IMG/VR virus record: IMGVR_UViG_2713896899_000006
Location: 1 to 24,900 of that record
Strand: one strand, 5' to 3'
Origin: a virus
Taxonomy: Duplodnaviria; Heunggongvirae; Uroviricota; Caudoviricetes
Length of the DNA: 24,900 nucleotides
Shown here piece by piece: positions 9,231 to 15,129 of the stretch; the stretch's first letter is position 1, and each line of letters begins with the position of its first letter. The notes below the pieces were generated by a model. It had not been told where the DNA came from. It worked only from the letters and a program-made list of their open reading frames with translations, and made no database searches. Both the position numbers and the translations under genes were made by a program.

Positions 9231-10334
9231 ATGAGAAGACCGGACTGGGGGGCGTTGCAGCAGGAATATATTGCTGAATACACCCGCTCCGGTGTATCTC
9301 CGGTGGCGTGGTGTGAAGCAAAGGGACTGAATTACGCAACAGCCCGTCGTTACATCAAGAAACCTCCGAAAAATGCGCAGACAGAAGTGCGCAAAACTGC
9401 GCAAAAAAGTGCGCGAAAAAAAACTGCGCAGACTGCGCAGACTGCGCAAAAGCAAAACGGAAAATCTCAGAAAAAAAAGCCTGTATCCGATGCACTCCTG
9501 ATTGAGGGGGACACGGAAGAAATTTCGTTCTGCCCCGATGAATTCGGTATTTCTGACCAGCAGGCAAAATTCGCCATGTTGGTTGCTCAGGGGAAAAAGC
9601 CGACAGAGGCATACCGCCTGGCTGGTTACGAGGGGCAAGGTGCGACAGCAAACAGCAATGCCAGTCGTATGCTTAGAAATGCCAGGGTTTTTCGTGCCAT
9701 CAGCTACTTTCGCAATCATTACCAGAAACGCTATACCGCAGACCTGGATTTACTGGTGAGTCAGTTGATGGCCATCGTGCAGGCTGATCCCAATCAGCTT
9801 GCGCAATTTCGCCGTGTTAACTGTCGCTATTGCTGGGGGGAGAATCACCTCTATCAGTGGCGCGATATAGCAGAATTTGACAGGGCTGCCGCGCAGGCAT
9901 CCAAAGATGGTAAACCAGAACCTGAATATGGTGGCCTCGGTTTCGTTGATAGCGCCATACCAAATCCAGACTGTCCGAAATGCGGTGGAGAAGGTACAGG
10001 TCAGCTTTATATGGCTGATACCACTTTGCTTGATGGAAATGCGCGGCAATTGTATGCAGGAGCAAAGCTCGGAAAATTCGGCGTTGAGATCCTGCTGGAG
10101 AATAAAGCTGCCGCCCGGCGTGAATTATTGCGTTTGCTTTCCGCTGGCGGGGCATTATGTGCAGATAAGCGACTACAGGAACTGGAAATTGAACGGCGCA
10201 GAATGGAAAACCAGAAACTGCGCAAAGAGATCGAAACGGTGGAGGGTAATGAACATCCCCAGCCTGTGGCGATCAATATTAATGTAGTTGATGCCAGAGT
10301 GAGGAGTGATGAAGATGATCTCTCCGACGCTTAA
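9231..10334 (+). CDS. terminase small subunit (Terminase_2-like core) with N-terminal HTH, low-complexity K/Q/T/A linker and C-terminal CxxC...CxxC region, 367 aa
   Basis: Segment QQAKFAMLVAQGKKPTEAYRLAGYEGQGATANSNASRMLRNARVFRAI matches the Terminase_2 small-subunit pattern from memory; directly upstream of and overlapping the large terminase. Confidence 0.7.
   Translation: MRRPDWGALQQEYIAEYTRSGVSPVAWCEAKGLNYATARRYIKKPPKNAQTEVRKTAQKSARKKTAQTAQTAQKQNGKSQKKKPVSDALLIEGDTEEISFCPDEFGISDQQAKFAMLVAQGKKPTEAYRLAGYEGQGATANSNASRMLRNARVFRAISYFRNHYQKRYTADLDLLVSQLMAIVQADPNQLAQFRRVNCRYCWGENHLYQWRDIAEFDRAAAQASKDGKPEPEYGGLGFVDSAIPNPDCPKCGGEGTGQLYMADTTLLDGNARQLYAGAKLGKFGVEILLENKAAARRELLRLLSAGGALCADKRLQELEIERRRMENQKLRKEIETVEGNEHPQPVAININVVDARVRSDEDDLSDA
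9374..9448. repeat. cluster of six exact TGCGCA palindromic hexamers plus one TGCGCG variant within 75 bp, inside the terS coding sequence
   Basis: TGCGCA at 9374, 9388, 9398, 9425, 9434, 9443 and TGCGCG at 9410, spaced 9-15 bp; encodes the TAQTAQTAQ low-complexity linker. Confidence 0.8.
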
Positions 10335-12624
10335 TGTGCCTCAGGCGCGATTTCTTTCTATGCCTCATAAATTTAAAGCCTATGTTGCTGGTTTTGGTTG
10401 CCTGAGGGGAAGTACGCCTGTGGTTACAGAGAATGGGATTCTACCCATTCAGGAAATAACTCGACCAATGCGCGTTTTATCTTGGTCGGATGAGAATAAT
10501 CGATTTGAGCTTTCGCTAAGTGGTGGTGCGTACCCAAAAGGTGTGGCGAATCTATACCGAGTAGTGACGCAGCGAGGAGAATTTGTAGCAAGCGGACATC
10601 ACCGCGTTTTTTGCGCTGACGGTAGCTATCGATCTGTGGATAGTCTGGACGAATCGGTGAAGGTATTTGCATCTTCGCAAAACCTTCTTCTGACCAGTTT
10701 GGCCGCCGTCCCGAAATCGTTGCACGCAGGTGATCCACGTTTGAATCAAAAACTCGCAGATTACTTGGGTTGTTATGCAGATGAAGCCCGTCGATATGGT
10801 CAACAACTTCTGATGGCAGCAGATAACGCCCCAGCTTCTTTTCAGCGATCAAACGATGTTCAAACATCATGCCTGTTCTGCGCATATATGGATGGTCAGC
10901 AGGCGCTGGAGCAACGGCATATCCATCCAGATCAACAATTCGACCACCACGAAAGCTGGGGTTCAACTCACCCTTTCTGGCGCCACGGGAGAGCCGGTTG
11001 GTGTTGTGAATTCGGAGAATATTTTGAACGTGCTTTTCTGTGCAACCAACTTCCGCCGCGATCTCTGCCGACGTACGGTGACCATCAGCAAGAGCGAGGA
11101 TTCTGTCCTTCGCACTTTCTCGAGGGGCAGGCTTCTGGCGTTGTTTCAGCGTTAACCCATAACGAGATATGCAACGATAAACATGACTACGGTCACAACC
11201 TGCCAGAGAAGCAACTTCTGAAACGGTACGTTCTGGATGTGCTAAATCACAAATTAAATGGTCAAGAGGCGTCAAAACCAAACGCCTTAATCGAAACCTG
11301 CAACATATTGAGTGTAACACTGTTGCAGGAGGCCGAGCCATATTATGACCTCCAGGTATTGGATAATAACTGCTACGTAACTGCTGATGGGACGATTCAT
11401 CACAATAGCGGTAAAACATGGGTTGGGTGTGGTGGCATATGTAAGGGGATTTGGGAGCATCCGGGTATCAATCAGGGATATTTTGCGCCTACATATCCAC
11501 AAATTCGCGATATTTTTTATCCTACAGTTGAAGAAGTTGCTGCCGACTGGGGGCTAAATGTAAAAATTAACGAGGGAAATAAAGAAGTTCATTTTTATTA
11601 CGGACGTCAGTATCGGGGAACCACTATCTGCAGATCGATGGAGAAGCCACAAACGATCGTCGGTTTCAAAATTGGTAATGCGCTGGTGGATGAACTGGAC
11701 ATTTTGCCGAAGGAAAAAGCCAGAACAGCGTGGCGCAAGATAATTGCGCGTATGCGTTATAAGGTTGATGGACTTCGTAACGGTATTGACGTTACAACCA
11801 CGCCGGAAGGATTCAAATTTGTCTACGAACAGTTTGTTAAAGCCGTACGTGAAAAAACAGAGCTGGCCTCACTGTATGGCCTGGTACAGGCATCTACTTT
11901 CGATAATGAAAAGAATTTGCCAGCAGATTACATTCCCTCGCTCCTTGAGTCATATCCTCCAGAGCTGATTAAAGCCTATCTTCGGGGACAGTTTACTAAC
12001 CTGACAAGTGGTACTGTTTACCATCAGTTTGACCGAAAACTGAATAATTGCGAAGAAGAGGAACAGCCAGGTGAGCCGATATATATCGGGATGGATTTTA
12101 ACGTCGGAAAAATGGCTGGAGTCGTTCATGTGTTACGTTTTGGGCTTCCATGCGCAGTAACTGAAATCATTAACGCTTACGATACACCAGATATGATCCG
12201 TATTATTAAAGAGCGCTTCTGGTTATATGACGGGAATGATTATCGGAAAGTAAGGGAAATTTATATTTATCCTGATGCATCCGGGGATTCCAGAAAATCA
12301 AATAACGCAAGTGCGACGGATATTGCTCAGCTTAAACAGGCTGGTTTTAACGTTGTTGTAAACAGTTCGAACCCGCCAGTAAAAGATCGCGTTAACTCAA
12401 TGAATGCAATGTTCTGCAATGCCAATGGTGAGCGTCGCTATAAAGTTAATGTGAAGCGTTGTCCGGTATATGCCGAATCTCTGGAGCAACAGGTCTGGGA
12501 TGATAAGGGTGAGCCTGATAAAAAATCTGGTAACGATCACCCGAATGATGCCGGAGGTTATTTTATTGTTAAGCAATTCCCTATTGTCAAACCGACCGGA
12601 AGAGTTACATCACTTCGGATTTAA
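10306..12624 (+). CDS. terminase large subunit precursor (772 aa) containing a 336-aa intein inserted in the Walker A P-loop
   Basis: Exteins join as ...AYVAGFG|SGKTWVGCGG... (Walker A GFGSGKT) with Walker B-like ALVDELD downstream; the rest of the protein has the layout expected of a terminase ATPase/nuclease. Confidence 0.85.
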   Translation: MMKMISPTLNVPQARFLSMPHKFKAYVAGFGCLRGSTPVVTENGILPIQEITRPMRVLSWSDENNRFELSLSGGAYPKGVANLYRVVTQRGEFVASGHHRVFCADGSYRSVDSLDESVKVFASSQNLLLTSLAAVPKSLHAGDPRLNQKLADYLGCYADEARRYGQQLLMAADNAPASFQRSNDVQTSCLFCAYMDGQQALEQRHIHPDQQFDHHESWGSTHPFWRHGRAGWCCEFGEYFERAFLCNQLPPRSLPTYGDHQQERGFCPSHFLEGQASGVVSALTHNEICNDKHDYGHNLPEKQLLKRYVLDVLNHKLNGQEASKPNALIETCNILSVTLLQEAEPYYDLQVLDNNCYVTADGTIHHNSGKTWVGCGGICKGIWEHPGINQGYFAPTYPQIRDIFYPTVEEVAADWGLNVKINEGNKEVHFYYGRQYRGTTICRSMEKPQTIVGFKIGNALVDELDILPKEKARTAWRKIIARMRYKVDGLRNGIDVTTTPEGFKFVYEQFVKAVREKTELASLYGLVQASTFDNEKNLPADYIPSLLESYPPELIKAYLRGQFTNLTSGTVYHQFDRKLNNCEEEEQPGEPIYIGMDFNVGKMAGVVHVLRFGLPCAVTEIINAYDTPDMIRIIKERFWLYDGNDYRKVREIYIYPDASGDSRKSNNASATDIAQLKQAGFNVVVNSSNPPVKDRVNSMNAMFCNANGERRYKVNVKRCPVYAESLEQQVWDDKGEPDKKSGNDHPNDAGGYFIVKQFPIVKPTGRVTSLRI
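10399..11406 (+). other. intein (protein-splicing element) within terL, 336 aa
   Basis: Starts with Cys in block-A-like CLRGSTPVVTENG; block-B-like TxxH (ASGHHRVF) about 65 residues in; ends with block F/G-like YYDLQVLDNNCYVTADGTIHHN followed by +1 Ser; insertion exactly splits the P-loop. Confidence 0.8.
10424..11341 (-). CDS. HNH (HNH_3-like) homing endonuclease with two HTH-like motifs, 305 aa, encoded antisense within the terL intein
   Basis: Minus-strand ORF (track 10424..11419) with HRLIAEKKLGRYLLPSEVVDHIDGLHLHNNPSNLRVFDSNVDHL, a strong match to the HNH_3 signature; I verified the reverse-complement translation of 10730-10810 by hand. GGAGG lies 7 nt upstream of the ATG at 11341 on the minus strand. 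Confidence 0.7.
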   Translation of the reverse strand: MARPPATVLHSICCRFRLRRLVLTPLDHLICDLAHPERTVSEVASLAGCDRSHVYRCISRYGLTLKQRQKPAPRESAKDRILALADGHRTSAEIAAEVGCTEKHVQNILRIHNTNRLSRGARKGELNPSFRGGRIVDLDGYAVAPAPADHPYMRRTGMMFEHRLIAEKKLGRYLLPSEVVDHIDGLHLHNNPSNLRVFDSNVDHLRATISGRRPNWSEEGFAKMQIPSPIRPDYPQIDSYRQRKKRGDVRLLQILLAASLLGIDSPHLLGTHHHLAKAQIDYSHPTKIKRALVELFPEWVESHSL

Positions 12625-14033: not shown

Positions 14034-15129
14034 ACGGCTGCGTGATGAATCGATTGCCCATGCTATCTGGATATCTCGCTATAGCACAGGTGTAGCGGCC
14101 AGAATGGTGAAAACGCTGAACGACAGCGACGCAGAGCTTACAGCTCGTTTGCTGGTGGCTCTGGATAATCTTGGGCCGGGGAGTTTCACCGTTACGCGTC
14201 TGGAATCACTTCTGGTGAGTGTGAGGGAAGTTAACCGCACTGCTATTAACAGTATGTTTGCTCGTCTCTCAGGAGAGTTAAACGAGCTGGCGATATATGA
14301 GGCTAGCTATCAGTTAAGTCTGTTTGACTCTTTGCTTCCTGATTTTGTGGCGGATATTCATCCTCTGATTGGTATCTCACCTGACACCCTTTATGCCGCT
14401 GCAATGGCGCGTCCATTTCAGGGAAGACTACTCAACGAATGGGCCTCAGACCTTGAAGCAGATCGGCTCAGGCGTATTACAAATACGGTACGTCAGGGTT
14501 TTTTGCTGGGGGATACCAATGAGCAGATCGCAAGAAAAATTCGTGGGCATGTCAGCAAGGGATTTCAGGATGGTGCATTGCAGATGAGTCGAGTTAATGC
14601 GGCCAGTATTGCAAAAACAGCAGTTGGGCATCTTGCTGCTACTGCCCGTGAGAGTTTCGCCATGGCAAACAATGATTTGATAAAGGGCAAACAATGGTTA
14701 TCCACACTTGATAATCGTACTACACCACAGTGTCGAATCAGGGATCGCCTCAAATATACGCTGGATAATAAACCTATTGGTCACAAAGTACCTTATTTAC
14801 AGGGGCCGGGAAAAATTCATTTCTGCTGCCGTTCAACAGAAACGTTTATTCTGAAATCTGCGAAGGAACTGGGGATTGATGTTCGGGATGTTTCTCCTGC
14901 CGAGAGGGCAAGTATGGATGGGGTTGTAGCCGGAGATACGACTTACAAGGAATGGTTTTTGCGCCAGCCTTATGCCAGGCAAAAACAAATAGTGGGAGAA
15001 ACACGGGCAAAACTGATTCGTGATGGAGGTATGTCACCAGATGAATTTTACACCGATAAAGGTGAATGGTTGACGCTGGGACAACTCCGTGAGCGTGATG
15101 CTCAGGCATTCAGAAAAGCCGGGATTTAA
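14014..15129 (+). CDS. head morphogenesis protein (Mu gpF / SPP1 gp7-like minor head protein), 371 aa
   Basis: Follows portal with a 20-nt overlap; size and position match the Mu-F-like family of pac-type head modules; assignment by synteny and recall. Confidence 0.6.
   Translation: MMQTVNERLRDESIAHAIWISRYSTGVAARMVKTLNDSDAELTARLLVALDNLGPGSFTVTRLESLLVSVREVNRTAINSMFARLSGELNELAIYEASYQLSLFDSLLPDFVADIHPLIGISPDTLYAAAMARPFQGRLLNEWASDLEADRLRRITNTVRQGFLLGDTNEQIARKIRGHVSKGFQDGALQMSRVNAASIAKTAVGHLAATARESFAMANNDLIKGKQWLSTLDNRTTPQCRIRDRLKYTLDNKPIGHKVPYLQGPGKIHFCCRSTETFILKSAKELGIDVRDVSPAERASMDGVVAGDTTYKEWFLRQPYARQKQIVGETRAKLIRDGGMSPDEFYTDKGEWLTLGQLRERDAQAFRKAGI

Follow-up and report, generated by a model that had tools for sequence, protein, structure and literature searches.

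A phage large-terminase intein with an HNH endonuclease gene nested on the opposite strand

Inteins in the P-loop of the phage large terminase (TerL) are known from mycobacteriophages. TerL1-a and TerL1-b are class 1 inteins with a sporadic distribution, splicing has been demonstrated for representative mycobacteriophage TerL inteins including the P-loop intein TerL1-b (but not TerL1-a), and both TerL1-b and TerL1-c cut intein-free terL (Kelley et al. 2016, PMC5050341). Here, we analyzed a 24,900-nucleotide stretch of DNA from a virus of the class Caudoviricetes (IMG/VR record IMGVR_UViG_2713896899_000006, positions 1 to 24,900; hereafter the window), whose terL gene contains an in-frame insert with the properties of a class 1 intein and, on the opposite strand of this insert, a gene for an HNH endonuclease. 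We consider it very probable that the locus is a two-strand mobile element composed of a spliced TerL intein and an antisense HNH homing gene. Like TerL1-a and TerL1-b, the window intein belongs to class 1, occupies the Walker A motif of a large terminase and is found sporadically. However, the mycobacteriophage P-loop inteins are located at or adjoining the Lys/Thr position (a slash marks an insertion point throughout) of terminase_1 proteins in actinophages, whereas the window intein is inserted three residues earlier (G/SGKT), and its family resides mostly in Terminase_6-type TerL proteins of proteobacterial phages. Furthermore, the mycobacteriophage TerL inteins carry their endonuclease in frame, whereas that of the window intein is encoded on the other strand.

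Inteins with an endonuclease open reading frame (ORF) on the antisense strand have been described, but they are uncommon (Gosselin, Arsenault & Gogarten, bioRxiv 10.1101/2025.01.02.630785). The enzyme encoded is of the LAGLIDADG type in the Synechocystis DnaX intein (Gorbalenya 1998; Gogarten 2002) and LAGLIDADG or VSR-like enzymes in actinophage inteins (bioRxiv 10.1101/2025.01.02.630785). The window locus has in common with these inteins the nested opposite-strand ORF, the open sense frame and the evidence of ongoing transfer, and some of the known cases are also found in terL. The antisense types described so far are LAGLIDADG or VSR-like, with HNH listed solely in frame, and their secondary ORF lies outside the splicing domain. 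In contrast, the window gene encodes a protein with two helix-turn-helix (HTH) domains followed by an HNH core, and its last ~80 codons overlap the N-terminal lobe of the Hint splicing domain. Full-text literature searches, which left most subscription journals outside their coverage, did not turn up an intein with an antisense HNH gene, and an antisense HNH gene overlapping a splicing domain appears to be unreported.

Three other systems are related in part. I-HmuI (PDB 1u3e) is an HNH homing nickase encoded on the sense strand of a group I intron in Bacillus phage SPO1, and it does not have the tandem N-terminal HTH pair or the helical C-terminal domain (CTD) of the window HNH protein. The 'hidden HNH' of Mycobacterium phage ShiLan is located in an insertion in a DNA methylase gene. 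It is read from the same strand but with the frame shifted, and no splicing domain is detectable in the insertion (Arsenault et al. 2025, PMC11855218). As in the window, a phage gene contains an in-frame insertion that encodes an HNH protein in another of its frames. As the HNH core of the window protein (10715-10942, minus strand) matches ShiLan positions 44701-44913 in a tblastn search (E 6e-7), the two elements appear to use related HNH_3 nucleases. In fractured genes, a free-standing endonuclease gene lies between the halves of a split intein (Dassa et al. 2009, PMC2677866). The window element resembles them in that a free-standing endonuclease gene is linked to the region between the N- and C-terminal splicing parts. 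However, in fractured genes the host gene and the intein are divided between two ORFs that are joined by trans-splicing, whereas the sense frame of the window is continuous.

The terL precursor ORF spans positions 10306..12624 of the plus strand, and its flanks match Pfam Terminase_6N (E 1e-30) and Terminase_6C. The frame is opened by GTG 10306, but the likely start is ATG 10315, which is the annotated start in intein-free alleles. Translated from this ATG, the precursor has 769 residues and a computed mass of 86.8 kDa. The insert occupies positions 10399-11406 of the same strand (1008 bp) and consists of 336 stop-free in-frame codons with a 37.8-kDa product. It starts with CLRGSTPVVTENG and ends with DGTIHHN, which is followed by SGKTWVGCGG. 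The insertion point thus falls between the Gly and the Ser of the TerL Walker A motif, GFG/SGKT. The N-extein (10306..10398) ends in AYVAGFG, the first half of the motif, whereas the C-extein (11407..12624) begins with the Ser+1 of SGKT and comprises the remaining part of the ATPase and the nuclease domain. Removal of the insert gives a continuous ...AYVAGFGSGKTWVGC... and a TerL of 433 residues and 49.0 kDa.

This insert was first proposed to be a class 1 intein in an initial annotation made from the sequence alone, which pointed to the split Walker A motif, the Cys at the start, the His-Asn at the end with Ser next to it, the GFGSGKT restored by removal of 336 residues, and products of about 86 and 49 kDa. 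All these points were borne out by computation. In particular, the comparison with intein-free alleles gave a precise result. In a megablast search of phage genomes, 10 records aligned with both flanks over exactly 1311 bp, which is 2319 - 1008, and exactly these 1008 bp are missing in 785 of the 786 complete Escherichia coli genomes that carry this terL. GFG and SGKT are contiguous in the empty alleles, and in a three-way alignment Salmonella phage SPF_0923 shows an uninterrupted GGT TTT GGC TCG GGC AAA ACA. The 1008-bp segment is a true insertion and not a conserved part of the terminase, which is the alternative that the initial annotation had set against its own reading. The sole occupied E. 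coli allele is that of MEI003, the one carrier of the element among 5,426 complete genomes, and its insert is 99.7-99.8% identical to that of the window. The MEI003 terL also has an 87-bp in-frame tandem duplication (L002, ~14100-14190; window, ~12350), which repeats 29 residues of a part of the nuclease domain. Neither the window nor the empty alleles have this duplication, which is unrelated to the intein.

The assignment of the insert to class 1 inteins is supported by its catalytic residues and fold. C1, H68, D317 (block F), H335 and N336 are invariant in 44 diverged representatives of the family (mutual identity <85%), and the +1 position holds Ser, which is replaced by Thr in phage Ymer and at locus L094. 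The initial annotation had designated ASGHHRVF as a TxxH-like block B. This segment is indeed block B, with its second His being the invariant H68, but the Thr of the TxxH motif is not conserved and is replaced by Ser, Asn or Ala. AlphaFold2 (AF2) modeled residues 1-92 and 298-336 of the sense intein as confident, beta-rich regions with pLDDT scores (predicted local distance difference test) of 83-93 and 85-94, respectively. A Foldseek search of this model against the PDB found 26 matches at E <= 0.001. The best 19 are all intein structures (E ~1e-5 at the top) and the remainder are the related Hedgehog and BIL Hint domains. The top structures are the Spl DnaX mini-intein (7cfv), Ssp DnaB (1mi8), and the Npu DnaB and DnaE inteins. 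A profile of the 44 sequences also matches 7cfv in both lobes with an E-value of 7e-4. The sense intein matches no PHROGs family, and neither it nor the HNH protein has an NCBIfam match. Among the 5.8 billion protein clusters of one database, the sense intein has only 6 relatives, versus 387 for the antisense HNH protein.

The two Hint lobes are separated by a long linker. The N-terminal lobe (10399..10674, codons 1-92), which contains C1 of block A and H68 of block B, is kept in all 44 representatives. The C-terminal lobe (11290..11406, codons 298-336) contains D317 of block F and H335-N336 of block G, and it is constrained on the sense strand only, with a free third codon position. The linker (10675..11289, codons 93-297) is an open read-through of the antisense HNH gene. 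Its sense protein has an identity of ~0.2 and a free codon position 2, and is predicted to be mostly disordered, but it is stop-free where ~8 stops are expected. Hence, the initial annotation, which treated the 336 residues as one protein, was incomplete rather than wrong: the insert is an intein, but its middle ~200 residues are a read-through of a minus-strand gene, and its N-terminal splicing lobe is co-coded with the 3' end of that gene. The linker contains one conserved patch, YAxxARxYGQQLL (residues 126-137; 10774-10809, plus strand), which AF2 modeled as a helix of medium confidence. The patch faces the best-conserved segment of the HNH catalytic core on the other strand, and it seems to be a side effect of the constraint on that segment.

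The sense frame of the intein contains no endonuclease domain; instead, the endonuclease is encoded on the minus strand. The putative HNH homing-endonuclease gene (10424..11341, minus strand; stop codon 10424-10426) is located wholly within the intein and encodes a protein of 305 residues (34.6 kDa, isoelectric point 9.8). The longest ORF of this strand, 10424-11419, has 331 codons and is almost coextensive with the insert. The protein matches Pfam HTH_29, HTH_28, HTH_23 and HNH_3, all above their gathering scores, and belongs to phrog_10730. Its AF2 model has a mean pLDDT of 78.7 and contains four confident modules: HTH domain 1 (11159..11269; residues 25-61; pLDDT 90-96) and HTH domain 2 (11009..11110; residues 78-111), both of which are also recognized by Pfam, the HNH nuclease core (10715..10942; residues 134-209), and the helical CTD (10433..10627; residues 239-303; pLDDT 76-93), which lies opposite the Hint N-lobe. 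The core, DHIDGLHLHN...N...DH, has the beta-beta-alpha-metal HNH motif with the catalytic His, Asn and His. We found 387 homologs at E <= 1e-3, down to 44% identity and mostly 275-305 residues long. In their alignment, the catalytic HNH residues are invariant and the C-terminal segment is strongly conserved, with G247, R250, L255, S265 and L268 of the CTD being invariant.

The HNH gene likely starts at ATG 11341, which is preceded at a distance of 7 nucleotides by a Shine-Dalgarno (SD) sequence GGAGG (11349..11353, minus strand). An ATG with an SD-like motif ahead of it is found in 40 of the 44 representatives. There are two alternative starts: TTG 11275, the counterpart in the alignment of the ATG used by most relatives, and ATG 11419, which gives the 331-residue protein of RefSeq but is located inside the C-extein and has no SD sequence. 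Because the relatives begin at or after the position of ATG 11341, the annotated 331-residue protein is probably 26 residues too long. The GGAGG sequence is the reverse complement of the conserved Asp-Leu-Gln codons of block F (GAC CTC CAG; codons 316-319, plus strand). In relatives with Asp-Met-Gln in block F, the HNH gene starts further in, at an SD-ATG of its own.

Both strands carry the marks of selection. Among the 44 representatives, we compared pairwise identities by zone. In codons 319-336 (blocks F and G), the identity of the sense protein is 0.73-0.86 and that of the HNH protein ~0.3, and sense position 3 is free (0.38-0.43). In the middle (codons 99-293), the sense protein drops to 0.16-0.3 (0.56 at codons 123-134) and the HNH protein has 0.33-0.84, with sense position 2, which is the HNH wobble position, being free (0.31-0.45). 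In the N-lobe (codons 15-74), the sense and HNH proteins have similar identities (0.49-0.65 and 0.44-0.70, respectively), and the three codon positions are about equal (0.58-0.82). A second analysis of the 17 indel-free members of the 336-residue clade gave the same zones. The density of polymorphic sites is 0.24 in the N-lobe, where they are spread evenly over the three sense positions (20, 22 and 16), 0.46 in the middle, where 163 of 286 are at sense position 2, and 0.48 in the C-lobe, where 33 of 56 are at sense position 3. Hence, the intein comprises three zones: the C-terminal blocks are constrained on the sense strand only, the middle on the antisense strand only, and the N-terminal lobe by both proteins. 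In the dual-coding stretch (10427..10674, both strands), which encodes the Hint N-lobe on the plus strand and the HNH C-terminus on the minus strand, no codon position is free.

The absence of stop codons was evaluated by permutation. When the codons of the HNH gene were permuted synonymously, the sense strand acquired 8.1 stops on average and was open in no more than 0.25% of the permutations, whereas no stop is observed in any of the 44 representatives. As the loci were gathered without an open-frame criterion, this result is not an artefact of selection. Conversely, when the sense codons of the N-lobe were permuted synonymously, ~2 antisense stops were expected and a median of 4.5% of the permutations remained open, and again no stop is observed in 44 of 44. 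A 135-residue mini-intein of the same family and site (P0126; L090, 1498-1902), which has no HNH gene, contains 8 antisense stops in the register of the family.

The arrangement is conserved far beyond the window. In Yersinia enterocolitica, Pseudomonas aeruginosa and Acinetobacter vivianii, the HNH gene is antisense within a terL that is open throughout (771-772 residues). An alignment-driven scan of IMG/VR gave 79 loci, and a scan of genome contigs with a single HNH protein gave only one locus, in Enterobacter pasteurii. In all 83 loci from these sources, the reverse strand of the HNH match is open from end to end, and 81 of them contain a clean Walker A intein of the form G/C[LVIM]...HHN/SGK[ST]. 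The occupied Walker A loops (VAGFG/SGKTW, MGPVG/SGKS, VGGFG/SGKTF and others) span several terminase families, and the exteins match Pfam Terminase_6N/6C, Terminase_3 (weakly) or no family. The inteins fall into two size classes of ~336 residues with two HTH domains and ~290 residues with one. All 65 unique loci share one codon register (antisense position 1 opposite sense position 1, antisense 2 opposite sense 3, antisense 3 opposite sense 2); their HNH stop is within intein codons 2-17, and the HNH start is ~20-45 codons ahead of the intein end. The HNH gene was within the intein at each locus that we looked at.

Additional inteins were also noted. An environmental terL (L047:1052-2866, minus strand) contains, besides the P-loop intein with the antisense HNH gene, a downstream mini-intein in the C-extein (residues 431-562), which matches PT-HINT, Intein_splicing and Hint_2. 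Locus L096 (minus strand) is a 1688-residue helicase-like ORF (Helicase_C) that is open through two inteins. One is in a P-loop (G/SGKS) and carries a short-type antisense HNH gene; the other ends in HN/C and is located in a region with a same-strand LAGLIDADG_2 gene call.

The histories of the intein and of its host gene disagree, as their identities are in conflict. The window intein is 92.3% identical in DNA sequence to that of an Enterobacter locus (L008), but the C-exteins are only 71.7% identical, whereas the window C-extein is 92.9% identical to that of the empty SPF_0923 allele. At locus L013, the extein is closer to that of the window (77%), but the intein is more distant (85%). Judged from these comparisons, such discordant histories indicate homing. 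In a comparison of the codons flanking the insertion site, the +1 Ser codon is AGY in 30 of the 44 occupied sites versus TCG in the empty E. coli allele, the empty alleles sampled being those of this one terminase family. A candidate cleavage target is formed by the P-loop codons of the empty allele, GGN/TCG GGC AAA ACA, that is, GGC/TCGGGCAAAACA.

The element is present in cultured phages as well. The HNH protein has matches over most of its length in nine isolates, namely Pectobacterium phages Ymer, Abuela, Sabo, Taid, Pappous, Koroua and Amona, Dickeya phage Setonix, and Pseudoalteromonas phage PHS3. Besides Ymer, five further isolates belong to the Ymer genus. In Ymer and PHS3, we read the full architecture and found both frames to be open. 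Phages of the Ymer genus reach titres of 1e9-1e10 PFU (plaque-forming units) per ml, and the paper describing them mentions neither the intein nor the HNH gene (PMC11445585). Since a TerL with 288-336 residues inserted into its P-loop could hardly work unspliced, the presence of the insert in the only terL of plaque-forming phages strongly implies that the intein splices autocatalytically.

The most plausible course of events is the following. The terL gene would be translated through the 336-codon class 1 intein located between the Gly and the Ser of the Walker A motif. The two Hint lobes (codons 1-92 and 298-336), joined by an unstructured linker of ~200 residues, would fold together, and the intein would splice itself out to give a 49-kDa TerL with an intact P-loop. 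The product of the minus-strand gene nested in the intein would be an HNH endonuclease of the I-HmuI type that has two HTH domains as well as a helical CTD. This enzyme would nick or cut an intein-free terL of a co-resident phage or prophage near its P-loop codons, and recombinational repair would then copy the intein together with the endonuclease gene into the broken allele, which constitutes homing. Under this proposal, both frames stay open over ~920 bp because both products are needed, and the same bases would be under selection for the Hint N-lobe and for the 3' quarter of the HNH gene.

The overlap itself may be a late addition. A profile search of 1.84 billion representative proteins gave 361 clusters at E <= 1e-30, but only the top ~45 of them reach the CTD and the rest stop near profile position 210-220. 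In the four contexts of such shorter homologs that we examined, all the genes are antisense in P-loop inteins; one host is a Terminase_3 TerL (GPAG/TGKS) and the others are helicase-like proteins. In the two cases with the intein N-terminus present on the contig, the HNH stop is 66-70 codons in, so that blocks A and B are not overlapped. As the shorter homologs stop earlier, the antisense ORF seems to have been extended at its 3' end across the Hint N-lobe in the clade of the window, which would have created the CTD, although this comparison samples four contexts and the AF2 confidence of the CTD may partly reflect the constraint of the other strand. We thus somewhat favor the following interpretation. 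The ~250 bp of 10427-10674 would encode two selected folded domains, the beta-rich Hint N-lobe and the helical CTD, the latter having arisen by overprinting, and the locus would be the tip of a large unannotated class of antisense-HNH inteins in terminases and helicases, which are systematically called 'HNH endonuclease plus truncated gene'.

Several observations weigh against a two-strand mobile element and have to be set beside this evidence. The check with an intein-specific hidden Markov model suggested in the initial annotation was negative: Pfam Intein_splicing (PF14890) scores 16.5-18.3 bits, which is under its gathering cut-off of 35.8. As the family is divergent and this match is below the threshold, the assignment is carried by the fold and the catalytic residues. 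The AF2 alignment of the sense intein contained 7 sequences only, and the pLDDT of <50 over residues 146-296 therefore says no more than 'low confidence' about the middle of the model. AF2 may overrate the CTD because of the conservation that the Hint lobe imposes from the opposite strand. Owing to their common descent, the 44 representatives are not fully independent trials. A promoter scan of 10200-11700 found no sigma-70-like promoter on either strand for the HNH gene, which would have to be transcribed against the late operon. Finally, the prophage in the window may be defective.

Among the alternatives, a real intein whose minus-strand ORF is a decaying or never-translated remnant, and which is thus non-mobile with a long linker, draws on the negative promoter scan and on the rarity of the element in E. 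coli, which would also fit a relic. We nevertheless find it unlikely, as the polymorphism of the middle zone is concentrated at the HNH wobble position (163 of 286 sites), the HNH protein has an identity of 0.4-0.84 in that zone where the sense protein has 0.2, its catalytic residues do not vary, and the start codon with its SD-like motif is kept in 40 of 44 representatives. Furthermore, the discordant histories of intein and extein imply recent transfer, and the antisense frame fills with stops once HNH is lost, as in the mini-intein. The HNH protein could also be a packaging accessory of the HK97 gp74 type rather than a homing enzyme, as HNH genes are common beside terminase genes (PMC3592412) and the window gene is inside terL. 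The lack of the gene in all 10 phages and in 785 of the 786 E. coli prophages that have this terminase, its travel with the intein over unrelated terminase families, its shorter relatives in helicase-like P-loop proteins, and the fact that its closest solved structure is the homing nickase I-HmuI make such a role very unlikely.

The reading adopted in RefSeq is that terL is a pseudogene broken by a free-standing HNH gene in reverse orientation, with the openness of the sense frame being accidental. In MEI003, the Prokaryotic Genome Annotation Pipeline (PGAP) calls an 'HNH endonuclease' (WP_077828224.1) and a terL pseudogene, 'incomplete, missing N-terminus', and PHS3 is likewise annotated as a truncated terL plus an HNH gene. 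However, an accident would have to account for a sense frame that is open in 83 of 83 loci versus ~8 stops expected per locus, for an exact in-frame insert with invariant splicing residues and a Hint fold, and for its presence in the only terL of plaque-forming phages. We regard it as exceedingly unlikely. Some group I introns carry antisense endonuclease genes, and the insert might in principle be removed as RNA, by a group I or group II intron with such a gene. An intron would need neither 336 open in-frame codons nor Cys1, His-Asn and a Hint fold, and a known intron is excluded by the lack of any Rfam match (E <= 1) on both strands of positions 10000-11800. The chance of removal as RNA is next to nil, and this candidate was rejected.

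A spliced TerL intein with an antisense HNH homing gene would have several implications. The compact Hint pair, which tolerates an unstructured linker of ~200 residues, and the putative P-loop-targeting HNH enzyme may serve as tools. The locus also exposes a blind spot of annotation: gene callers almost always pick the HNH ORF and truncate terL, RefSeq records a pseudogene, and phage surveys based on terL as well as calls of prophage 'intactness' will misjudge such loci. HNH is added to the types of endonuclease that are able to invade a splicing element from the antisense strand, and the arrangement supports the formation of composite inteins by free-standing endonuclease genes invading a splicing element. 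Furthermore, the family provides a clean and widespread natural case of two proteins selected on opposite strands, and it comes with an internal control, since the same Hint lobe is found without the overlap in the mini-intein and in the relatives with a short HNH protein. Because of these non-overlapped relatives, both overprinting and the constraint of dual coding are directly testable.

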